64,000 bases of DNA, taken from assembly GCA_900767885.1 (NCBI GenBank), contig CAAGAU010000040.1:602-64601 (forward strand), read 5' to 3'. This document shows, piece after piece, positions 7,314 to 34,935 of the stretch. The notes beneath the pieces were generated by a model. That model was not told the DNA's origin. It ran no database searches and saw nothing but the letters and a program-made list of their open reading frames with translations. The position numbers were made by a program, and so were the translations under genes. Position 1 is the first letter of the stretch. Each line of letters opens with the position of its first letter. The DNA comes from Clostridia bacterium. Its GTDB lineage: Bacteria > Bacillota > Clostridia > Christensenellales > Borkfalkiaceae.

Positions 7314-8261
7314 ATGAATTCGACTACGATCAAAACAAACCAGAGGTTGAGCAAAACAAAGACCAACAGGCTTATCTTTTACTCGATAATGGTAGCCGTA
7401 CCCGTAATACACTTTCTTGTGTTTTATGTGTACATAAACTTTAACTCGATATTGTTATCTTTAAAAGATTATGCGCTTGCCGATATGGGCGGTTATACCT
7501 GGAAATTTGCGGGATTTAAGAATTTTAAAACGGCGTGGAATATTTTTACTTCCCGCGGGTATCTTATCAGAAGCTCGCTTATATTCCTTGCGTCGGACTG
7601 TCTTATAATCACGCCGCTTGCAGTGCTGTTTTCATTTTATCTCTATAAAAAAGCGCCGCTTTCGGGTTTCTTTAAAGTAATACTGTTTCTGCCTCAACTT
7701 TTGTCGGGCGTAATTCTCGGTTTGCTTTACAAGTACATCGCTTCCGACGTCTATCTGTGGTTTGCCGATAAAATGCACATGACGGTAAACGGCGGCTTGC
7801 TCGATTCGGCGGAAACCGTTCTCGCTTCAACGCTCGCGTTTAATATTTTTATGGGCTTCGGCGTAAACGTATTATTGTTTGTCGGCGCGATGAGCGGCGT
7901 AAACTCGTCGGTTGTGGAATCTGCCAAAATCGACGGGGCGTCGTCCTTGCAGGAACTTTGGTATATCATTCTTCCGCTGATAAGTCCGACGGTAATTACC
8001 GTGCTTATAATCTACATATCGCACGTTTTTACCAATCAGTACAATATGTATACGTTGTTCGGGTCGGGCGCGTTGGATATTCAGACGGTAGGATATTTTC
8101 TGTATTGCCAGACGCTCGAATCAAAACTTGCCGGCACACGCGAAAACATCTTTACTTATCCGGTACTTTCTGCCATGGGTATCATTCTTACGGCAATAAT
8201 TTTGCCGATAACCATGTTGTTCAGGTGGTTTATGAACAAGTACGCTCCGAGTGCGGACTGA
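7314..8261 (+). CDS. ABC sugar transporter permease (LplB/MalF-like)
   Basis: Multi-TM protein with EAA loop ESAKIDGASSLQELWYIILPL. Confidence 0.85.
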   Translation: MNSTTIKTNQRLSKTKTNRLIFYSIMVAVPVIHFLVFYVYINFNSILLSLKDYALADMGGYTWKFAGFKNFKTAWNIFTSRGYLIRSSLIFLASDCLIITPLAVLFSFYLYKKAPLSGFFKVILFLPQLLSGVILGLLYKYIASDVYLWFADKMHMTVNGGLLDSAETVLASTLAFNIFMGFGVNVLLFVGAMSGVNSSVVESAKIDGASSLQELWYIILPLISPTVITVLIIYISHVFTNQYNMYTLFGSGALDIQTVGYFLYCQTLESKLAGTRENIFTYPVLSAMGIILTAIILPITMLFRWFMNKYAPSAD

Positions 8262-8267
8262 TCGGGG

Positions 8268-9245
8268 GTGAATACTATGAAAAAACTAATCCGATCGGAC
8301 AAAAAGGAAATCGCGACAAAGGTCATTTTCGTTTTGCTTTTTGCGGTGCTTGTGATCTATTCGCTCATAATGATATTGTCGCTGTTGTGGGGATTTATAA
8401 CCTCGCTTAAATCGACGGGCGACTTTGAAAAACTCAACAATATTATGGGTCTGCCGAATCTCGACGCCGGCAATTACTTCAACAGTCGCGACGCGTTTTT
8501 CAAATTGGGCAACTATAAGACGGTTATCGATAACTTCGTAGTTAAACAAACGAGCGCGTATTACGGGCTGGGCGCGGAACAAATTGTTCACAGATGCGAG
8601 GCGAATTTCGGAGAAATGCTCGTAAATACATTGCTCTACACCGTGGGCGGCGCGCTTATTTACGCCGTTATGCCCGCAATAACCGCGTATCTTTGCGCCA
8701 AATACAGTTACAAACTCAGCGCAATATTGGTTACGGTCTACACGCTTATGATGTGTATGCCTATAGTCGGCAGCGCACCTTTTGAACTGACTTTCTTGCG
8801 TAACGTAGGTTTGTACGACAGTATTTTAGGTAACTACGTGCAAAAAATGACCGGCGGCGGTATGTATTTCTTCGTGTATCTCGCATACTTTAAGGGCACG
8901 AGCGAAACCTACCGCGAAGCGGCGCAGTTAGACGGGGCGTCGCAGTTAAGAATTATGGCGACTATTTATTTTCCGCTTGCCGTAAAAATTATCGCCACGG
9001 TCTTTTTAATTCAGTTCGTCGCGCTGTGGAACGATTATCAGACTCCGCTTTTGTACCTGCCTACGCATCCTACGCTGGCTTACGGAGTGTATTACGTTTC
9101 TTTCGCGTCGTACGCGCGGGCTTTGCATCATACGCCTTTGCGTATAGCGGGACTTATGCTGCTTGCAATACCCATAATCATACTTTTTGCAGTGTTTAAA
9201 GACAAACTTATGGGAGATATATCTCTCGGAGGAATTAAGGAATAA
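8268..9245 (+). CDS. ABC sugar transporter permease (LplC/MalG-like)
   Basis: Multi-TM protein with EAA loop EAAQLDGASQLRIMATIYFPL. Confidence 0.85.
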   Translation: MNTMKKLIRSDKKEIATKVIFVLLFAVLVIYSLIMILSLLWGFITSLKSTGDFEKLNNIMGLPNLDAGNYFNSRDAFFKLGNYKTVIDNFVVKQTSAYYGLGAEQIVHRCEANFGEMLVNTLLYTVGGALIYAVMPAITAYLCAKYSYKLSAILVTVYTLMMCMPIVGSAPFELTFLRNVGLYDSILGNYVQKMTGGGMYFFVYLAYFKGTSETYREAAQLDGASQLRIMATIYFPLAVKIIATVFLIQFVALWNDYQTPLLYLPTHPTLAYGVYYVSFASYARALHHTPLRIAGLMLLAIPIIILFAVFKDKLMGDISLGGIKE

Positions 9246-26373: not shown

Positions 26374-28116
26374 ATGAGATTAAAAAAAACAGCGATTATT
26401 CTGGCGGTATTGATGTTCTGCTTAACCTGCTTTGCGTGTAAGGGCGGATCAGGCGGCGTAAGCGGCGGGAGTACAGGCAGCGACAGTATAAGCGGCAGCG
26501 AGGAAATATCAGACGGATTGAAGGAACTCGATTCCGCAGATCACGAGCATGAATACATGTATGTAAAAACAGTTGTCGCCACGTGCGACAAAGAGGGCGT
26601 AAAAGCGCATTATAAGTGTAAAATATGCGGAATAGACGTTGTTAACGTAAAGGGGAAATTTTATGCGGCGTCCGCAAAGTCGCTGGCGACCCCAAAAAAA
26701 CAACATAGTTTTACAATGGAGGTCGCGGACGAGAAATATCTTGTTTCCGACGCTACCTACGATATGCCGAGAGTATATAAAAAGTCATGCGTGTGCGGAA
26801 TGGCCCCGGGCGACGGCGAATACGAAACGTTCACCGCGGGAAAGGCTCTTAAAGAATATGATAATGCCGATAAATCGCTTTATACGCCGACTTCTTTGAC
26901 TATGACGCTTTACGACGCCGCGAACTGCGTTTACGGTTTTACCTGGAATACGAACGATTATCCCGCAATGCCCGTCGTAACGTACAGCGAGAGCGAGTCG
27001 TTGAAAAGCGACGCGACGGAGGTTATGGCAAGAACGGAGGAGGCAAAATCGTTTGCATATTCCTCAAGCGGAGACGTGGCGATAACGTATTACGTTTCTA
27101 AAGCGGAAGTAAAATTAAAACCGAATACGGTATACACGTATAAGGTAGAGGATAAATATTTAGGTACGGCAACCAAAGCCGTAACGATAAAAACGCTTGA
27201 CGCGACCGCAAACAAAGTTAAATTTTCGCACGTAAGCGATTCTCAGGCGGGAGACGTTCCGAACGGTACGGGTAAGTATTTCAAAAGCGTGTTAGGCGCG
27301 ATAGAAAAGGGCGGAAGCGATTTTATTATCCATACGGGCGACGTGGTCGAGTATTCCAAGTACGAAAGTTTCTGGAAGGAAATGCTGGACGGTAATTTCG
27401 ATTATTTGTCGAAGATTCCCGTAATGGCAATATCGGGAAACCACGAAACAACTTATAAAAACGGTAACAACGAAACATATAAGCATTTTAACTATAAAAT
27501 TCCCGAACAACAGACGGACAAAGGATTTTATTATTCTTTTTCCTATGCCGACATCAGATTCGTAATGCTTAATACAAATCTTTTAACGGGCGGATGTCTT
27601 ACGGACGCACAGTATAAATGGTTGCGGAACGAGCTTTCCGAAAAGACGGAAAAGTGGACTATAGTAACGCTTCATAACCCCATATACTCGGTAGGAAAGT
27701 GGGGTGCGGACGAAAGCCGTAACGGTATCGCGCTGTCGCTCAGAAGTCAACTCGGCGATTTGTTTGCCGAAAGCGGCGTAGACGTGGTGTTGCAAGGACA
27801 CGATCATTGCGTTTCGAGAACGTTCCCGATAGGCAAAAACGGAGTGCCTGCGACCGAAAAGACAGTTGATATAGGCGGAATTTCGTATATCGAAAATCCC
27901 GAAGGCGTTTTATACGTTATGAACGGACCTGCGGGAAATCAGACGAGGACCGTATTTAAAAACGACGAAACTTTGTACGCGTACGCGATGGGTTCGTCGG
28001 TAAGTTCCTGGGCGGATTTTGAAATTGTCGGGGATAATCTTACCGTTACGGTAAAAACCGCTTATTCGGGCGTTGTAAAAGATATCGTTTCCTGGGGAAT
28101 AAAAAAATCGGCGTAA
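26374..28116 (+). CDS. Lipoprotein metallophosphoesterase (purple acid phosphatase-like)
   Basis: Lipobox CFAC. Calcineurin-like motifs GDVVEY, GNHE, LHNPIYS and GHDH. Cys/His-rich N-terminal segment. Confidence 0.8.
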   Translation: MRLKKTAIILAVLMFCLTCFACKGGSGGVSGGSTGSDSISGSEEISDGLKELDSADHEHEYMYVKTVVATCDKEGVKAHYKCKICGIDVVNVKGKFYAASAKSLATPKKQHSFTMEVADEKYLVSDATYDMPRVYKKSCVCGMAPGDGEYETFTAGKALKEYDNADKSLYTPTSLTMTLYDAANCVYGFTWNTNDYPAMPVVTYSESESLKSDATEVMARTEEAKSFAYSSSGDVAITYYVSKAEVKLKPNTVYTYKVEDKYLGTATKAVTIKTLDATANKVKFSHVSDSQAGDVPNGTGKYFKSVLGAIEKGGSDFIIHTGDVVEYSKYESFWKEMLDGNFDYLSKIPVMAISGNHETTYKNGNNETYKHFNYKIPEQQTDKGFYYSFSYADIRFVMLNTNLLTGGCLTDAQYKWLRNELSEKTEKWTIVTLHNPIYSVGKWGADESRNGIALSLRSQLGDLFAESGVDVVLQGHDHCVSRTFPIGKNGVPATEKTVDIGGISYIENPEGVLYVMNGPAGNQTRTVFKNDETLYAYAMGSSVSSWADFEIVGDNLTVTVKTAYSGVVKDIVSWGIKKSA

Positions 28117-28216: not shown

Positions 28217-28248
28217 AGGCGATAGAACGTTGTTTCTACCGCCTTTTT
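28217..28248 (+). terminator. Rho-independent terminator after the phosphoesterase gene
   Basis: AGGCGATAGAA / TTCTACCGCCT stem (one mismatch) followed by TTTTT. Confidence 0.6.
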
Positions 28249-28343
28249 ACGACAGGCAAACAGGAATTTCTGTTTGAAATATTCCTGACAAAATTTTAAG
28301 CTTGCAGCATATTTAATTTTTTTGAAAAAAGGGTGAAAATAAG

Positions 28344-28372
28344 TTGACATAAGTTCGGCAGTGTGCTATGAT
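28344..28372 (+). promoter_or_regulatory. Sigma-A promoter of the permease leader
   Basis: TTGACA (28344-28349), 17-bp spacer, TATGAT (28367-28372). Confidence 0.7.
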
Positions 28373-28450
28373 ATTCGCGATAAAATCTTTAAGGCGATAC
28401 AGAGATGTCGGCAAGAACGGTTATTTTATTACTATGCGTAAGTATGATAA

Positions 28451-28482
28451 CGCCTTGTCGCTCTGCGGCAAGGCGTTTTTTT
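28451..28482 (+). terminator. Leader terminator (attenuator) upstream of the nucleobase permease
   Basis: 11-bp stem CGCCUUGUCGC / GCGGCAAGGCG (one G-U pair), loop UCU, then 7 U. Lies ~75 nt after the predicted TSS and 56 nt before ATG 28539. Confidence 0.7.
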
Positions 28483-28538
28483 CACGATAGTCTTAACGTC
28501 CGTAAGATTTTTCAAAAAAAATTTTTAAGGAGAGAGTT

Positions 28539-29987
28539 ATGCAACTCACTTACGGTATCAAAGACAGACCTAAGTTTGGTAAAAACCTCGTTTTTGCCTT
28601 CCAGCAAATGATCGCCATCATGGCGGCAACCTTACTCGTTCCCATCCTCGTATCGTCGGTCGGACTTAAATGCGATCCCGCCGCGGCGTTGTTCGGCGCG
28701 GGCGCAGGTTCGATAGTTTATCTCTTGTTCACGAGATTCAAAAGCCCCGTGTTCCTCGGTTCGTCCTTCACGTTCCTCGGCGCGCTTCAGGCGGCTGCCA
28801 CTCAGAACTACGGCTACTGGGGTCTTATAATCGGCGTAACCTTTGCGGGCCTCGTATACGTCGTAATCGCGCTCGTTATCAGATTCGTCGGTGCGGGCTG
28901 GATAAAGAAACTTCTTCCTCACGTTATAATAGGACCCGTTCTTGCGATAATAGGTCTTTCGCTTTCGGGTACGGCGGGCAGTTGGATGATGACCAACGGC
29001 GGCGCAAACTACAGCCTCTGGTACATTCTCGTAGGTTTGGTTACCTTCATAGCGATAGTAATCGCCTCGGTAAAAGGCAAGGGAATGGTTAAACTCATTC
29101 CGTTCATAGTCGGCATAGGCGCGGGTCTTGTTTTTGCGATAATAATAACGCTCTTCGGCTATATAAACGACAGCGCGTTCTGCATGAACATGAGAATAGT
29201 CGATTTCACTCCCATCAAAGAGTGCTTCAGCCCCATAAGATTCCAGAGTTTCTTCGATTATCCTAAATTTACCTTCCTCGAGGCTATCCGTACCAACGGT
29301 CAGTACACGCTCGACGGAGCGGCGGTCGGCAACCTTGCGGTACTCTTCGTACCTATCGCGGTTGTAGAACTTGCTCAACACATATCCGACCACGAAAACC
29401 TTTCCAACATAGTCGAAAAAGACCTTCTCGAAGATCCCGGTCTTCATAACACCCTCCTCGGCGACGGCGTAGGTTCTATCGTCGGCTCGTTATTCGGCGG
29501 TTGCGCAAACACGACTTACGGCGAATCGATAAGTTGCGTCGCGCTCTCCAAAGACGCTTCGACCTCGACCATACTCCTTACGGGCGTTATGTGTATGGTA
29601 GTATCCTTCATCTCGCCCTTCGTAGCGATAATCAACATGCTCCCCAAATGCGTAATGGGCGGCGCGTGCATAGCGATGTACGGTTTCATCTCGGTAAGCG
29701 GACTTCAGATGCTTAAAGACGTAGACCTTTCCGACAACAGAAACCTCTACCCCGTTGCGGCGATACTCGTTATAGGTATAGGCGGCGTAGTGCTTAACTT
29801 CGGTAAAAACGCGCTTACGGGCGGCGCGCTCATACAGGTAACCTCGCTTGCTCTTGCGATGTTCGTAGGTATAATCGTAAACGCGATAACCCACAGCGGC
29901 AAGGACAAAGTAGACAACGGTGCGATTCAGGAACAAGTTCCCGATATGGCGTTTGAAGGCGAAAACGACCAAAAGGCAGCCGAATAA
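28539..29987 (+). CDS. NCS2 family nucleobase:cation symporter (uracil/xanthine permease type)
   Basis: ~13 TM segments; N-terminal AFQQMIAIMAATLLVPIL resembles the UraA/PyrP GLQHLFAMFGATVLVP motif; followed by upp. Confidence 0.8.
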   Translation: MQLTYGIKDRPKFGKNLVFAFQQMIAIMAATLLVPILVSSVGLKCDPAAALFGAGAGSIVYLLFTRFKSPVFLGSSFTFLGALQAAATQNYGYWGLIIGVTFAGLVYVVIALVIRFVGAGWIKKLLPHVIIGPVLAIIGLSLSGTAGSWMMTNGGANYSLWYILVGLVTFIAIVIASVKGKGMVKLIPFIVGIGAGLVFAIIITLFGYINDSAFCMNMRIVDFTPIKECFSPIRFQSFFDYPKFTFLEAIRTNGQYTLDGAAVGNLAVLFVPIAVVELAQHISDHENLSNIVEKDLLEDPGLHNTLLGDGVGSIVGSLFGGCANTTYGESISCVALSKDASTSTILLTGVMCMVVSFISPFVAIINMLPKCVMGGACIAMYGFISVSGLQMLKDVDLSDNRNLYPVAAILVIGIGGVVLNFGKNALTGGALIQVTSLALAMFVGIIVNAITHSGKDKVDNGAIQEQVPDMAFEGENDQKAAE

Positions 29988-29998
29988 CAAGTAAATTG

Positions 29999-30028
29999 AC
30001 CGCCGCAAAAATTGCGGCGGTTTTTTTT
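29999..30028 (+). terminator. Rho-independent terminator after the permease
   Basis: ACCGCCGCAA / TTGCGGCGGT stem followed by 8 T. Confidence 0.8.
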
Positions 30029-30038
30029 GCATAAATTA

Positions 30039-30067
30039 TTGAAAATAAAATTTAAAAGTGGTATAAT
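30039..30067 (+). promoter_or_regulatory. Sigma-A promoter of upp copy 1
   Basis: TTGAAA (30039-30044), 17-bp spacer, TATAAT (30062-30067). Confidence 0.7.
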
Positions 30068-30116
30068 ACGATACGGTAAGCCTTGCGAGCCGCATTAAAA
30101 AAGAGAGGCATATATT

Positions 30117-30758
30117 ATGGAAGATTATATGAAGAACGTAACTATTTTAAATCACCCGCTTATAGCGCATAAGATAACTCACCTTTGCGACGTAACGACC
30201 AACACGAAAGAATTTCGCGAGATAGTTTCCGAAATCGCAATGCTTATGGGTTACGAGGCGTTCAGAGATTTACCGACGGAGGACGTCGAAATTCAGGCAC
30301 CGCTTTCAAAATTCAAATCTCCCGTAGTGGTAGAGCCTATCGCGATAGTTCCCATTTTAAGGGCAGGACTCGGTATGGTAGACGGACTTACCGCGCTTTT
30401 CCCCACGGCTAAAATAGGGCATATAGGTCTGTATCGCGACGAGGAAACCCTCGAGCCGCACGAATATTATTGTAAACTGCCCAAAGACTGCATAGACGGC
30501 ACCTGCATTGTCGTAGACCCCGCGCTCGCAACCGGCGGCTCGGCAAAGGCGGCAATCGACTTTATAAAGGAAAGAGGATATAAAAAGATTAAACTTCTTT
30601 CGCTCATTGCCGCGCCCGAAGGCGTTAAAAGAGTTGCCACCGCGCACCCCGACGTGCAGATTTACGTGGCGCATTACGCAAACGCTCCGCTTAACGAACA
30701 CGGCTATATAGTAACGGCGTTCGGCGACGCGGGCGACCGTATATTCGGTACGAAATAA
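30117..30758 (+). CDS. upp: Uracil phosphoribosyltransferase paralogue with an atypical base-binding loop
   Basis: ILRAGLGM and PRPP loop [11 protein letters not shown] match UPRTase, but the C-terminal loop reads [18 protein letters not shown] instead of the canonical GYI(V/L)PGLGDAGDR. Confidence 0.8.
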
Positions 30759-30761
30759 TAA

Positions 30762-30802
30762 AAAAACTGCCCTTGCGCGGCACTCAATGCCGCGCAAGGG
30801 CA
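30762..30802. terminator. Bidirectional terminator between the convergent upp copy 1 and DUF523 gene
   Basis: 15-bp perfect stem TGCCCTTGCGCGGCA / TGCCGCGCAAGGGCA, preceded by an A-run. Confidence 0.75.
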
Positions 30803-30817
30803 ATCGTTAAATAAATA

Positions 30818-31237
30818 TTAAAGTTCGTTCTCGGTCAACACGGTAAAGCCTGCCGCCAAAAGTTTTTCGGTTGTCAAGCCGTTGCCTTTGACCTTACCGC
30901 CCGTAAAAGTACCGTCGTAAATAACGCCTTTCCCGCAGGAAGGACTGTTTGCTTTAAGTACGCAATAGTCCACCGTGTTGGCTTTGGCTATCTCCACGGC
31001 GAAATCCGCGCCGCGGGTATATTCTTCGGTTACGTCGACGCCCGCGCTCGATATAATTTTATCGCCCACGCGTTCGGCGGGGTTGCGGGGAGTGGAAAGT
31101 CCGCCGAGTTGCTCGGGACAAACGGGAATGAGTACGGCGTTTTTACCGAGTTCGGCTAATTTTTCGTTGAAACAGTCGTCGCCTTTATAGCGGCATTTGT
31201 TGCCGTAAAGGCACGCGCTTACCAAAATTTTTTTCAT
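30818..31237 (-). CDS. tudS: DUF523 / TudS-like [4Fe-4S] protein (thiouracil desulfidase family)
   Basis: 139 aa. Three spaced Cys in the DUF523 pattern: SACLYG, IPVCPEQLGG and NSPSCGKG. Confidence 0.7.
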   Translation of the reverse strand: MKKILVSACLYGNKCRYKGDDCFNEKLAELGKNAVLIPVCPEQLGGLSTPRNPAERVGDKIISSAGVDVTEEYTRGADFAVEIAKANTVDYCVLKANSPSCGKGVIYDGTFTGGKVKGNGLTTEKLLAAGFTVLTENEL

Positions 31238-31255
31238 AGTAAAATCTCCGTTGTT

Positions 31256-31284
31256 ATTTTAACATAACGCGGCAAAAAAATCAA
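31256..31284 (-). promoter_or_regulatory. Sigma-A promoter of the DUF523 gene
   Basis: Minus strand: TTGATT, 17-bp spacer, TAAAAT with an upstream TG (extended -10); a GGAGA RBS follows. Confidence 0.6.
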
Positions 31285-31300
31285 TTAAAAGGAGAGAAAA

Positions 31301-31939
31301 ATGAATAACTATCCTAACGTGCATATCCTCGATCACCCCCTTATAAGACATAAGGTTGCCATAATCAGGGATAAGGAAACTACTACCAAACAATTCCGCG
31401 AGGTAATAAGCGAAATAGCCACGCTTATGGCTTTCGAGGCGTTCAAGGACGTACCCACTCAAAAAATCGTCGTGGAAACGCCGCTCGAAACCGTAGAGCA
31501 AACCGTGGTAAAGGAAAATTCCATAGCCATAGTACCCATTTTAAGAGCGGGTCTCGGTATGGTGGACGGTATACTTTCGCTTTTCCCCGCCGCAAAGGTA
31601 GGGCATATAGGTATGTACCGTAACGAAGAAACCCTCGAACCGCAGGAATATTATTGCAAACTTCCCGTGGGGATAGATAATAAAGTCGTTATGCTGGTAG
31701 ACCCCATGCTTGCCACGGGCGGCAGCGCGTGCGACGCGATTACTCTTTTGAAAAAGCGCGGCTGCAAACATATAAAATTCCTTGCCATAATCGGCGCGCC
31801 CGAGGGCGTAGAGAAAGTTCACGCCGAACACCCCGACGTAGAAGTTTACGTTTCCACGCTCGACAGATGTCTTAACGAGAACGGATATATCCTTCCCGGA
31901 CTCGGCGACGCGGGCGATCGTATATTCGGTACTAAATAA
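31301..31939 (+). CDS. upp: Uracil phosphoribosyltransferase (canonical)
   Basis: [37 protein letters not shown]. Confidence 0.9.
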   Translation: MNNYPNVHILDHPLIRHKVAIIRDKETTTKQFREVISEIATLMAFEAFKDVPTQKIVVETPLETVEQTVVKENSIAIVPILRAGLGMVDGILSLFPAAKVGHIGMYRNEETLEPQEYYCKLPVGIDNKVVMLVDPMLATGGSACDAITLLKKRGCKHIKFLAIIGAPEGVEKVHAEHPDVEVYVSTLDRCLNENGYILPGLGDAGDRIFGTK

Positions 31940-31954
31940 AACAATAAAAAGAAA

Positions 31955-31996
31955 AGCGTCCGCAGAAGGCAAAATGCCGTCCGCGGACGCTTTTTA
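31955..31996 (+). terminator. Rho-independent terminator after upp copy 2
   Basis: AGCGTCCGC ... GCGGACGCT stem followed by TTTTT. Confidence 0.7.
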
Positions 31997-32090: not shown

Positions 32091-32119
32091 TTGCTCCCGA
32101 AACGGAACGGCGTTATAAT
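32091..32119 (+). promoter_or_regulatory. Sigma-A promoter of the repeat lipoprotein gene
   Basis: TTGCTC, 17-bp spacer, TATAAT (32114-32119). Confidence 0.5.
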
Positions 32120-32160
32120 TGAAAAAGAAAAAGCCCCTTCGTCGGGGAAAGGAGAATAAT

Positions 32161-34935
32161 ATGAAAAAATTATCGATAATGGTTTTGGCTGCGGTTTTCG
32201 CAATCTCTATGACCGCGTTCGTTTCGTGTTCGGGCGGAGGCGGCGGTTCTGCCGATACGGGCGCAAGTTCGTCCGATGCCGGCGTGAGTTCGGGTCTGAC
32301 GTCGGACACGACGCCCGATACGGGCGTGAGTTCCGGTTCGGGTTCGGCTTCCGGTTCGGCGGAAACCGCGGAAGAATCGAAAGATAAGGCGGCGGGCGAG
32401 ATCGCTTCGCTTTATGGCGGAGTGCAAACGCAAAGTTTAAGTGCGGAAGAAAGATATACGCTCGATTTTGCATGCAAAATGATTTCGCTTAAAGTAGCCG
32501 CGCTCGATGGCGATTACGATACCGTAAAGGAAGGCGCGGACGCGTACGTTGAGGAATTTAAACGTATTTTAAGCGCGGTAACGCTAAAAGCAACCACCGT
32601 CGCGGCAACGACTGAAAAAGTCAAAGCGGAGTTGGATTCGCTTTATAACTGTGCGGTTTACTTTTTCGATAATACGCCAGACATGCAAAAATATAAGGCG
32701 GAGGCAACCCGAATTTACGACGAACTTAAAGTCCGATTATCTTCGGCGACTATAACCGTGGGCGAGGCAAAGGCCGTTATTTCGGAATTTGTCGCGGGGA
32801 CTTATAGTTATTTAAAGGTTGCGGTTTCCGCCGCTGTCGAAGACGTAAAAGCGATAGCGGTAAACGAGGTCGAGTCGCTGATTGCAAAAGCGATTGCTTA
32901 CGTGCCTTACGAAGAAGTGCAGACCCGCCTGACCGGGTATTTAAACGAGATAAAGAAAGCGATAAATTCCGCTCCGACTAAAGATGAGGCGGAGGAGCTT
33001 TTAACAAACGTCAAAGCCCGCGCAGAAGAAAAAATCACACAGATTTATCGCGAGAAAGTCGAAGAGTTAAGGACTGCCGTCGGGCAAAAACTCAATGCGC
33101 TTAAAAACGAGGCTCTCGGATACGTAAAAGACGAGCAACTTAAAAACGATCTGGACGAATATTTAAGCGGCGCGATTGAAAAAACGTTAAAAATCGAGGA
33201 TATAAAAACCGCGGAAAGCGCGCTTGACGAAATAGTCGTCGATACGCAAAAGTTTATACGGGAGCAGTATGCCAAACAGGTGGAAAAATTAAAGGCGGCG
33301 GCTAAAAATAAACTCGACGCGGCTTTTAATTCCGCAGTCGGCAAGGTCGAAAGCGAAGATATAAGAAAGAGGCTTACCGAGGCTTATGATACGGCAACGG
33401 GCGAGTTGCTTAAAATAAGCGACGTAAAAACCGCTCAGAGCGCGCTTAATGCGATTTTAGACGAGTTTGAAAAGGCCTCCGTCGATATTTTAAAAACCGT
33501 CGTTAAGGAGATCGCTCAAAAATATCAGGCTAAAATAACCGCCGTATACGAAAACGCCGTAAAACCGCTTTCGCAGGTTTCTAAAAACGCGCTGAAAAGC
33601 CTTTACGACGAAACGACGGCCGAATTGGCAAAAGCCGAAACCGTTGACGACGTCGTTGCGGCGGCGGATAGTTTTAAAGAGAGAGCGAAGGGATACGTTA
33701 TTGAGGCGATAGACGCGGTTGTCGCAAAGCTCGGCGAAGTTCCTCAGCCGTGGTCGTTTTTGCCGAAGAGTTTCGAGCCGAAGAATTTCGTTGTAAAAGC
33801 GGAAAATATACCTGCTTACGCCGACTTTACCCCGGTGAAAGAGATACCGCAAAATTACGTGGGTAAACAACTTAACGTGGTTTACGGACTGCTGAATAAA
33901 ACCTCGGTCGCTCTCTCGTACGTCAACAAGGTTTACGCTGCGCTAGGCACGGCTGGGACGGTCTATAACACGATTTTCGATAATTCCGACGGGCAGAATT
34001 TAACGCTTGAGGCGGGCGGTTTTACGTTGAGTATCAAACTCGATAATACCTGTTATGAAGTTTCGGCTCGGATTGCGACCGTTAAAATACTCGTGTTTGC
34101 GGATTTGAACAACAGCAGTTACGGCGCGAAAATCGATCTTACGGAAGACCTTGCCGTAAAATACGACGTAACCGCAAGCAAATTCACCGTGGCGATGAAT
34201 ATGCTTAACGTTATGGCTACGCAAATTGTTTTTGAAAAAGACAACGGCGTTACTACGGGTTATGTTTACAATACCGTTGTTGCAAAAGAGAAGGAATTGA
34301 CTTCTACGAGCGCGCTTATAACCGTAAAGGACGGCTATACGACGATAGTCGGCAATAAGGGCGATTTTATTCCGACGAGCGGAGGGATAAATTGCGAAGT
34401 GTACGAAAATTCCACGGGAAAATTCGTCGGCAGCGAAGTTTACGAAAATATGAGCAAAGATGACGAAAAACCTAAATTTTACGATACGCTCTGGTATAAT
34501 TTAAGGGATATAGCGGGTATAAATTCCGTAAAAAAGACGGATAAGCAAAACGGGCTTAACCCAGATACGATTTATATCAATTCGTCCGAAGATACCATTC
34601 ATACCAAAATCGTTTCCATAACCGATTTGTCGCGCAGATTCGATATAGAATTCAAGAGTGTTTACGCTTATACTTATAACGAGCAGACCGCAGAATACGA
34701 ACAAGTCGTGTTTGAAGTTCCGATGTTGTTTATACAGGAAAAATACGCCGCGGATTTTGCAAAAGATTTTGAAAAAGCAAACGGCAAGTCGGTAAGCGAC
34801 GGCAGCATAAGCATAAGCGTTTCCGCCGAGGCGAAAGAGGCTGTAAATTACGGATACAAAACGCTCGTCGAAAGTTATAAGGCGATTAAAGACAAAGTAA
34901 CCTATCAGAGCATAATCGATTATTGCAAACGGTAG
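32161..34935 (+). CDS. Large lipoprotein (924 aa): Ser/Gly/Thr/Asp linker, about six ~74-aa alpha-helical repeats, ~400-aa C-terminal domain of unknown function
   Basis: ATG 32161 follows AAGGAGA. Lipobox FVSC. Repeats align by eye (see finding). Confidence 0.6.
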   Translation: MKKLSIMVLAAVFAISMTAFVSCSGGGGGSADTGASSSDAGVSSGLTSDTTPDTGVSSGSGSASGSAETAEESKDKAAGEIASLYGGVQTQSLSAEERYTLDFACKMISLKVAALDGDYDTVKEGADAYVEEFKRILSAVTLKATTVAATTEKVKAELDSLYNCAVYFFDNTPDMQKYKAEATRIYDELKVRLSSATITVGEAKAVISEFVAGTYSYLKVAVSAAVEDVKAIAVNEVESLIAKAIAYVPYEEVQTRLTGYLNEIKKAINSAPTKDEAEELLTNVKARAEEKITQIYREKVEELRTAVGQKLNALKNEALGYVKDEQLKNDLDEYLSGAIEKTLKIEDIKTAESALDEIVVDTQKFIREQYAKQVEKLKAAAKNKLDAAFNSAVGKVESEDIRKRLTEAYDTATGELLKISDVKTAQSALNAILDEFEKASVDILKTVVKEIAQKYQAKITAVYENAVKPLSQVSKNALKSLYDETTAELAKAETVDDVVAAADSFKERAKGYVIEAIDAVVAKLGEVPQPWSFLPKSFEPKNFVVKAENIPAYADFTPVKEIPQNYVGKQLNVVYGLLNKTSVALSYVNKVYAALGTAGTVYNTIFDNSDGQNLTLEAGGFTLSIKLDNTCYEVSARIATVKILVFADLNNSSYGAKIDLTEDLAVKYDVTASKFTVAMNMLNVMATQIVFEKDNGVTTGYVYNTVVAKEKELTSTSALITVKDGYTTIVGNKGDFIPTSGGINCEVYENSTGKFVGSEVYENMSKDDEKPKFYDTLWYNLRDIAGINSVKKTDKQNGLNPDTIYINSSEDTIHTKIVSITDLSRRFDIEFKSVYAYTYNEQTAEYEQVVFEVPMLFIQEKYAADFAKDFEKANGKSVSDGSISISVSAEAKEAVNYGYKTLVESYKAIKDKVTYQSIIDYCKR

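Follow-up and report, generated by a model that had tools for sequence, protein, structure and literature searches.

A conserved permease, Upp and TudS gene cluster with a PyrR-type leader in Clostridia and its possible role in thiouracil salvage

Introduction

A 64-kb stretch of DNA from a gut metagenome assembly of a Clostridia bacterium (hereafter the window, meaning the whole stretch) carries four genes with nucleobase-related predictions in a region that runs, with its flanking terminator, from 28344 to 31995. They encode an NCS2-family permease, two copies of Upp, the uracil phosphoribosyltransferase (UPRTase), and, between the two copies, a DUF523 protein of the TudS type. Why would a genome keep two UPRTases on either side of a putative desulfidase, with a permease close by? 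The first-pass annotation, made from the sequence, had proposed that the four genes form an island that imports and detoxifies or recycles a modified pyrimidine such as 2- or 4-thiouracil. The evidence set out below tips us, modestly, toward reading the locus as a chromosomal, PyrR-controlled salvage module specialized for sulfur-modified uracil, most likely 4-thiouracil from degraded gut bacterial tRNA.

Results

Conservation and linkage of the module

All four genes are present at the coordinates and on the strands previously annotated: the permease gene at 28539-29987 (+ strand, 482 aa), the first and divergent upp copy, upp1*, at 30117-30758 (+, 213 aa), tudS at 30818-31237 (- strand, 139 aa) and the canonical copy, upp2, at 31301-31939 (+, 212 aa). 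As also annotated, tudS converges on upp1* and is transcribed away from upp2 across a divergent gap (31238-31300) of exactly 63 bp.

A TudS alignment served as the query for a scan limited to one genome per species. It recovered 80 loci; in 59 of them TudS is at least 53% identical, and in 21 it is more distant. Within the group of 59, Upp1* lies beside tudS in 50 loci, the permease in 51 and all three genes in 47, while a canonical upp is found in 33 and pyrR in 20. Nine loci lack an adjacent Upp1*; in seven the contig breaks off beside tudS or the permease, and in two (L064 and L065) the flanks are complete and the module genes truly missing. Among the more distant TudS loci, which include Paenibacillus, Neofamilia and Bacteroidales, the module occurs in only 1 of 21.

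The trio stays together through at least six arrangements of gene order and strand, among them the window type, pyrR-permease-upp1-tudS, upp1-permease divergent from tudS, and permease-upp1 divergent from pyrR-tudS. Its hosts belong to several groups of Bacillota: Christensenella and other Christensenellaceae, Oscillospiraceae, Anaerovoracaceae, Candidatus Fimenecus, Candidatus Limihabitans and Solobacterium (Erysipelotrichaceae). A canonical upp adjoins chiefly in loci whose TudS shares 68% identity or more with that of the window, and in three loci (L060, L062 and L063) it lies several kb from tudS. Clustering of open reading frames over about 70 module loci revealed no widespread partner family beyond TudS, Upp, the permease and PyrR. 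The conserved unit is thus permease, Upp1* and TudS, often with pyrR, and the canonical upp is not part of it. The first-pass annotation had taken both flanking Upps as members of the module; the part with permease, Upp1* and TudS stands, but the canonical copy is adjacent only in closer relatives.

We also examined the linkage in the reciprocal direction, seeding a metagenome scan with the divergent-Upp alignment, which gave 80 upp loci, 12 divergent and 68 canonical-only. tudS is present in 9 of the 12 loci with the divergent motif (DPALATG), the remaining three being a 1.4-kb contig and two contigs that end at upp, compared to 0 of the 68 canonical-only loci (Fisher p about 1e-9, a descriptive value that ignores shared ancestry). 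The linkage of DUF523 to upp that had been mentioned in the annotation is therefore real, reciprocal and specific to the divergent paralog (50/59; 9/12 against 0/68). The annotation had also suggested looking at the genomic context in relatives, and there the linkage is conserved, with all three genes in 47 of 59 loci.

The TudS protein

The tudS product matches PF04463 ('2-thiouracil desulfurase') over residues 4-138 of 139, with 140.6 bits against a cut-off of 34.7 (E 4.5e-41), and aligns end to end with the crystallized TudS 6z92 (109 bits, E 2e-30). In this alignment the [4Fe-4S] ligands of TudS_A (Cys10, Cys43, Cys104) correspond to Cys9, Cys40 and Cys101 of the window protein, the catalytic residues (Glu45, Ser101, Ser103) to Glu42, Ser98 and Ser100, and the phosphate and base contacts (Arg17, Tyr18, Pro102, Tyr110) to Arg16, Tyr17, Pro99 and Tyr107. 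Cluster, catalytic and substrate residues are invariant in 13 relatives (71-85% identity). With every defining residue in place, the earlier prediction of a TudS-like [4Fe-4S] desulfidase appears sound. The protein has a single Pfam match, a stand-alone domain without DUF1722, which points to a small-molecule TudS and not to the tRNA eraser RudS. Module TudS proteins are only about 45% identical to the characterized enzymes and form a distinct, shorter (139 aa) subclade.

Published kinetics bear on the substrate. For two TudS enzymes, kcat/Km for 4-thio-uridine monophosphate (4-thio-UMP) is 2230- to 2650-fold above that for 4-thiouracil (PMC10611767). The same study found no specific binding of 2-thio compounds, and TudS_A desulfurates 2-thiouracil and 2,4-dithiouracil poorly (PMC10611767). 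Between the 2- and 4-thiouracil named in the first-pass annotation, these data support the 4-thio form, with the nucleotide preferred over the base, and disfavor the 2-thio form. Given this preference for 4-thio-UMP over the free base, a phosphoribosyltransferase (PRTase) is the logical upstream partner of TudS.

The two Upp paralogs

Upp1* and Upp2 are 58% identical. Both exceed the TIGR01091 equivalog cut-off of 208.35 (247 and 288 bits, respectively), and Upp1* also matches PF14681. By hidden Markov model score Upp1* is a member of the Upp family, in which its sequence marks a divergent subclade at the predicted base pocket. On a neighbor-joining tree of 146 Upp sequences, 57 of 58 Upp1* members fall in one clade.

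We compared 50 Upp1* sequences, namely that of the window and those of the loci anchored on TudS, with 39 canonical sequences, three of which have crystal structures. In the loop that binds phosphoribosyl pyrophosphate (PRPP), the canonical DPMLATGG becomes DPALATGG (Ala136) in all or nearly all of the 50. The uracil-binding loop changes from YIxPGLGD to YIxTA(F/A)GD (YIVTAFGD in the window), corresponding to P200T, G201A and L202F/A. In addition, Thr at position 61 is replaced by Ala, and the ALDERLN segment gains a one-residue insertion (position 188), absent from canonical sequences, together with an Arg-to-Ala change. Position 24 (window 30186-30188) is Cys in 50/50 Upp1*-type sequences and Arg in 39/39 canonical ones (HLCD compared to IRD). 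Upp2 retains both canonical motifs, DPMLATGG and YILPGLGDAGDR.

These changes are rare in the wider family. Among 150 diverse Upp representatives, Met and PGL occur in 85 of the 88 that could be scored, and DPA in only 2. This 50%-identity representative library was used only as a background of motif frequencies, since Upp1*, at about 58-60% identity to canonical Upp, merges into canonical clusters and the library is unfit to delimit its clade.

In the Toxoplasma gondii UPRT, Ile229 and Gly234 hydrogen-bond the base and Tyr228 stacks on it. The three substituted residues of the Upp1* loop are flanked by the equivalents of Ile229/Gly234 and Tyr228. Known catalytic and PRPP residues of UPRTases include Arg77, Arg102 and Asp198 in Mycobacterium tuberculosis and Asp200 in Bacillus caldolyticus, and in our Upp1* alignment (A2) Arg82, Arg107, Asp204 and the C-terminal Gly211 are invariant. 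Because the catalytic residues are invariant and the substitutions fall in base-contact regions, it is very likely that Upp1* is active as a PRTase and that its base pocket is altered.

Some sequences near the border of the clade have mixed features. The representative P0122, a relative of Upp1* of a TAA subtype, still has Arg at position 24. Two Upps inside the clade, both on short or truncated contigs, combine DPALATG with PGL (L096, 52-699) and DPMLATG with PGL (L107, 2-649); they may be evolutionary intermediates.

Separately, we scanned ten long Upp-containing representatives for TudS-Upp fusions as Rosetta-stone support, and none carries DUF523; these proteins are RpiB-, low-molecular-weight phosphotyrosine phosphatase-, permease-, radical-SAM- or kinase-Upp fusions or mis-calls. 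Fusions or fused calls (P0136, P0137, P0150, P0127 and P0169) include an NCS2 permease-Upp of 630 aa, RpiB-Upp and a low-molecular-weight phosphotyrosine phosphatase-Upp, without a TudS domain.

The variant NCS2 permease

The permease matches PF00860 (210 bits, E 5e-62) but falls short of the cut-offs of NF007995 (231 bits, with 477 required) and TIGR00801 (230 bits, with 291.8 required). Aligned with the Escherichia coli uracil transporter UraA, it keeps the uracil contacts Ser72, Phe73, Gly289 and Glu290. The position of UraA Glu241 is occupied by Gln280, with a new Glu277 one helical turn (three residues) earlier (VVELAQH for VVIAEH), and Thr takes the place of UraA Ala74 (SSFTF for SSFAF). 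ELAQH and SSFTF are found in all of the approximately 58 module permeases (56-100% identity). Permeases adjoining a canonical upp instead carry xxEH and SSFAF in 16 of 16 cases, and Gln at the Glu241 position in 0 of 16, compared to 58 of 58 module permeases. The permease had been called dedicated in the annotation, and this separation lends the description unexpected support.

In UraA, Glu241 is essential for function; it forms a hydrogen bond to N3 of uracil and, jointly with Ser72 and by way of a water, contacts O4 (UraA PDB 3QE7, 5XLS). The changed residue would thus read the edge of the ring at which 4-thiouracil differs from uracil. We infer that the Glu-to-Gln change may adapt the site to sulfur.

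The PyrR-type leader

Ahead of the permease gene lie a sigma-70-type promoter (28344-28372, +; TTGACA-17-TATGAT, TG-extended, 11/12 consensus matches) and a PyrR-type transcription attenuator (28372-28484, +), recognized by an RF00515 match, by its fold and by a covariance model of our own. The RF00515 (PyrR binding site) match is full-length, at 28382-28484, and scores 47.7 bits (E 1.3e-4) in a permissive Rfam search, under the gathering score of 54. At the gathering threshold RF00515 has no match in the window or in 13 related loci, and we therefore modeled the leader from its own alignment.

The binding hairpin (28386-28416) reads UCUUUAA-GGCGAUA-CAGAG-AUGUCGGC-AAGA and is followed by a terminator (28449-28477) with a 13-bp stem and a U-run; the window leader folds at -34.4 kcal/mol (z -2.95). 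Leaders of relatives have in common AUCUUUAA-stem-ACAGAGA-stem-CAAGA and, about 40 nt on, a CCUUGCC...GGCAAGG terminator. Across an alignment of 13 diverse leaders, 93.8% of cells pair, compared to about 40% when the partners are slid, and both sides have changed in 5 of 15 pairs, which is compensatory evidence for the structure. The 3′ side of the binding hairpin (GGCAAG) could pair with the 5′ arm of the terminator, as in the usual antiterminator logic of PyrR.

The covariance model built from these 13 sequences (R1) detects a single site in each of 45 related loci, in every case directly ahead of the permease or of pyrR-permease, and scores 97.7 bits at the window leader. It finds no site in loci that pair a canonical upp with a canonical permease. 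The prediction of an attenuated permease in the first-pass annotation is borne out by these features: a promoter, a predicted PyrR site (47.7 bits, sub-gathering) and a 13-bp terminator ahead of the gene.

pyrR itself lies within the gene cluster in about 25 related loci, including operon-like arrays of pyrR-permease-upp1*-tudS. In two of them (L023, 2981-6420, and L039) the order lspA-rluD-pyrR-permease-upp1*-tudS-der-plsY is found on one strand; judged by gene order, upp1* and tudS are here joined to the head of a classical Firmicutes pyr operon. In four others (L066-L068 and L077, metagenome-assembled genomes of Anaerovoracaceae and Oscillospiraceae), tudS begins about 20 nt after pyrR in what looks like an operon, and the pair is divergent from upp1*-permease. 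With its permease in the pyrR-pyrP position and a PyrR-type attenuator, the module looks like salvage induced by pyrimidine limitation. The earlier picture of an import and detoxification module is, as a stand-alone detoxification island, not favored by these features.

Transcription signals and chromosomal setting

The other genes of the cluster have signals of their own. An intrinsic terminator 3′ of the permease gene (29998-30022, within an annotated element at 29998-30030, +) has an 11-bp stem with 7 GC pairs and a T-run, and a promoter-like site for upp1* follows (30039-30067, +; TTGAAA-17-TATAAT, TG-extended). Convergent upp1* and tudS end in a common bidirectional terminator with a 19-bp stem (30765-30805, both strands). 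A weak promoter-like site for tudS (31284-31256, -; TTGATT-17-TAAAAT, TG-extended, 9/12 matches) lies within the 63-bp gap, in which no promoter-like site for upp2 was found. The terminator 3′ of upp2 (31951-31995, +) folds at -29.7 kcal/mol (z -7.4). The first-pass annotation had given each gene its own promoter and terminator; this is borne out for the promoter-like sites of the permease, upp1* and tudS and for the presence of terminators, but not for a upp2 promoter in the gap, and the upp1* and tudS terminator is shared.

The four-gene region has a GC content of 0.47, like its flanks, GC and skew are flat and the window has no tRNA genes. Core chromosomal genes surround it: murG, cca, uvrC, hprK, pflBA, fusA-tuf and rpsB-tsf-pyrH-frr-uppS-cdsA-dxr-rseP. 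We considered and ruled out a horizontally acquired island on these grounds. The four genes are a chromosomal cluster, and the term island used in the annotation holds for the clustering of the genes but not for a compositional or mobile element.

Directly upstream of the module, at 26374-28116 (+), a gene with its own terminator near 28219-28249 encodes a 580-aa lipoprotein-type calcineurin-like metallophosphoesterase, which is found in the same place in the near-identical contigs L001 and L002. One speculation is that this enzyme acts outside the cell as a phosphoesterase and supplies nucleobase salvage. On the other side, at 32119-34935 (+), lies a gene whose 938-aa product has an N-terminus like that of a lipoprotein, contains a long helical region rich in Ala, Glu and Lys and has no Pfam match at E<=1e-5; in L001-L003 a 912-918-aa gene, also without a Pfam match, occupies this position. 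Further away, 422-22807 resembles a glycan-utilization locus, with two ABC permease subunits, DUF4838, GH2, GH38, an ADP-ribosylglycohydrolase and four large proteins (546, 911, 566 and 1024 aa) without a Pfam match.

Two RNA features were seen in related loci. A ZMP/ZTP riboswitch (57.5 bits, above the gathering score) adjoins the canonical upp of L033 (5072-5154, -), and L040 has two Gut-1 RNA matches on opposite strands (7854-8356; 59 and 51 bits) beside a cluster of three tRNAs.

Discussion

Proposed pathway

We hypothesize the following route. When pyrimidine nucleotides are low, PyrR would release the leader attenuator and the permease would be made. This variant PyrP/UraA-type transporter, with Gln for Glu at the residue that reads N3/O4, would import 4-thiouracil from the pool of degraded tRNA in the gut. 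Upp1* would condense 4-thiouracil with PRPP to 4-thio-UMP, the preferred TudS substrate, and the TudS [4Fe-4S] cluster would remove the sulfur, yielding UMP and sulfide and keeping thio-nucleotides out of RNA. Where a canonical Upp is adjacent, it would serve ordinary uracil.

This route takes as its starting points the gene identities, the retention of catalytic residues, a reciprocal linkage that is independent of gene order and extends to pyrR and the PyrR-type leader, and substitutions in substrate-contact regions. From these sequence features we infer the substrate, the order of Upp1* before TudS and a change of specificity by the substitutions, each of which stays conditional. The route fits, by analogy, known roles of TudS, Upp and PyrR in the use and toxicity of 4-thiouracil in Clostridioides difficile and Staphylococcus aureus; C. 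difficile TudS both detoxifies and uses 4-thiouracil, and Upp is the route by which 4-thiouracil enters RNA (PMC12210855). A stronger claim is that transporter, PRTase and desulfidase have co-evolved into a truly 4-thiouracil-specific pathway, in which Upp1* prefers thiouracil, the permease with Gln for Glu241 is a thiouracil transporter, TudS closes the route at the nucleotide level and PyrR controls it. We put this forward tentatively, as quite possible though short of an even chance.

Several points weigh against a thiouracil-specialized, PyrR-controlled module. Canonical Upp enzymes already accept 4-thiouracil (PMC12210855), so there is no strict need for a specialized paralog. Common descent inflates the association statistics; Upp1*, the variant permease and the TudS subclade may have had a single origin each and been passed on jointly. 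Placed behind pyrR, where pyrP is ordinarily found, the permease could be the general uracil permease of the lineage. As for regulation, the Rfam score of the leader is sub-threshold, pyrR is absent from the 64-kb window, and upp1* and tudS each have a promoter-like site there without a PyrR site, which leaves their co-regulation with the permease conjectural. Lastly, the residue after D-P in the PRPP loop (Met in DPMLATGG) is only presumed, by analogy with PRTase structures, to pack on one face of the base.

Alternative explanations

The plainest alternative is ordinary uracil salvage, with a redundant Upp paralog, a TudS that cleans up thio-nucleotides arising by accident or from the cell's own tRNA, and substitutions that are neutral markers of lineage. 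It would account for both Upps passing the upp equivalog cut-off and for a permease that is in the classical pyrR-pyrP place and PyrR-attenuated like the usual pyr genes; canonical Upp already uses 4-thiouracil, and the Pseudomonas TudS works without a linked Upp. We nevertheless regard it as rather unlikely. The substituted positions are near-invariant (Met together with PGL in 85 or more of the 88 scorable representatives; UraA Glu241 functionally essential) and the substitutions are seen only in tudS-linked genes, the linkage persists through the six or more rearrangements, and the canonical upp is kept alongside in 33 of 50 loci, which argues against simple redundancy.

If the module is specialized, the modified base may still be another one, since neither the pocket changes of Upp1* nor those of the permease reveal by themselves which ring position is modified. 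TudS_A acts, if poorly, on 2-thiouracil and 2,4-dithiouracil, and the low identity of the module TudS to characterized enzymes and its distinct subclade would allow a shift of specificity toward these, toward 5-substituted 2-thiouracils from wobble-uridine modifications or toward 2-thiocytosine-derived bases. Set against this are the conservation of all TudS_A residues that contact 4-thio-UMP, the fact that the changed permease residue meets the N3/O4 edge in UraA and not O2 or C5, and the abundance of 4-thiouridine (s4U) as a thio-nucleoside of bacterial tRNA, with gut relevance demonstrated for 4-thiouracil; together they make a different pyrimidine improbable in our view. Upp1* could, conversely, be a UPRTase that excludes thiouracil and so permits safe uracil salvage in its presence, with TudS handling leakage. 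Discrimination would be advantageous, as loss of upp function in S. aureus gives 4-thiouracil resistance, and the pocket substitutions could have shifted selectivity either way. We give this idea very little credence: a thiouracil-accepting canonical upp adjoins in most close relatives and would defeat exclusion, M136A would be expected to enlarge the pocket and not to restrict it, and the nucleotide preference of TudS makes most sense if a PRTase supplies the nucleotide. We therefore return to salvage of sulfur-modified uracil as the reading that we favor.

Significance

4-Thiouracil shapes competition in the gut, poisoning bacteria without TudS and feeding C. difficile, which has it (PMC12210855, citing Munneke 2025). 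Beyond C. difficile, a broad set of commensal Clostridia appears to have TudS tied to its own Upp paralog and permease variant, both changed at base-contact positions. If the proposed specificities hold, the nucleotide preference of TudS would be explained by a dedicated PRTase that feeds it, and residues that tune UPRTases and NCS2 transporters between oxo- and thio-pyrimidines would be identified. The Upp1* motif and the ELAQH signature would then predict which gut taxa use or resist thiouracil, and the enzymes would be candidates for orthogonal 4-thiouracil labeling of RNA. Should the fully 4-thiouracil-specific pathway be true, gut commensal Clostridia would feed on a pool of s4U-derived base under PyrR control, by the first salvage route rebuilt at every step around a breakdown product of tRNA modification.

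Comparison with known systems

The head of the Bacillus subtilis-type pyr operon (pyrR-pyrP with PyrR attenuation, RF00515) resembles the lspA-rluD-pyrR-permease order of L023 and L039, and its leader likewise has a binding hairpin that overlaps the antiterminator, followed by a terminator. The window-type loop is UACAGAGAU instead of UCCAGAGAGG, and the leader scores under the Rfam gathering threshold. In the B. subtilis type de novo genes (pyrB etc.) follow, whereas the module has upp1* and tudS, and the window permease unit is detached from pyrR, unlike the pyrR-pyrP head.

With the E. coli UraA uracil:H+ symporter the window permease shares the NCS2 fold and the conserved Ser72-Phe73 and Gly289-Glu290 contacts. 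It differs in Gln for Glu241 with a Glu three residues earlier, in Thr for Ala74, in about 50 extra residues and in falling below the NCBIfam uracil-permease equivalog cut-off (231 bits against 477).

The characterized TudS enzymes, TudS_A (PDB 6Z92-6Z96), TudS_P and Pseudomonas putida TudS_KT (PMC10611767), are like the window protein in being stand-alone DUF523 proteins with a three-Cys site, Glu and two Ser, and the Arg/Tyr/Pro/Tyr contacts. They are longer (166 aa compared to 139 aa), and the tudS genes of the window subclade, from gut Bacillota, lie together with those for a variant Upp, a variant permease and PyrR, a linkage undescribed in the TudS papers examined. RudS, the TudS-DUF1722 fusion that erases s4U from tRNA (PMC11417400), has the TudS catalytic domain in common with the window protein, which lacks DUF1722 and the light-response gene context.

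The closest functional parallel is in C. difficile (Munneke et al. 2025, as described in PMC12210855 and PMC12334391), a gut Clostridia in which TudS turns 4-thiouracil into usable pyrimidine and the analog enters by way of Upp and PyrR. These accounts of Munneke et al. 2025 mention neither a dedicated Upp paralog nor a permease with Gln for Glu241. The literature that we searched (DUF523-UPRTase and thiouracil-permease) does not describe the trio; the primary C. difficile and 2018 DUF523 papers are outside its scope, and an earlier mention of tudS-upp is possible. TudS, PyrR attenuation, Upp and UraA are each already known. What is new, on comparison of these sequences, is a co-inherited trio in which transporter and PRTase carry clade-specific changes at predicted substrate contacts, found only with this TudS subclade.

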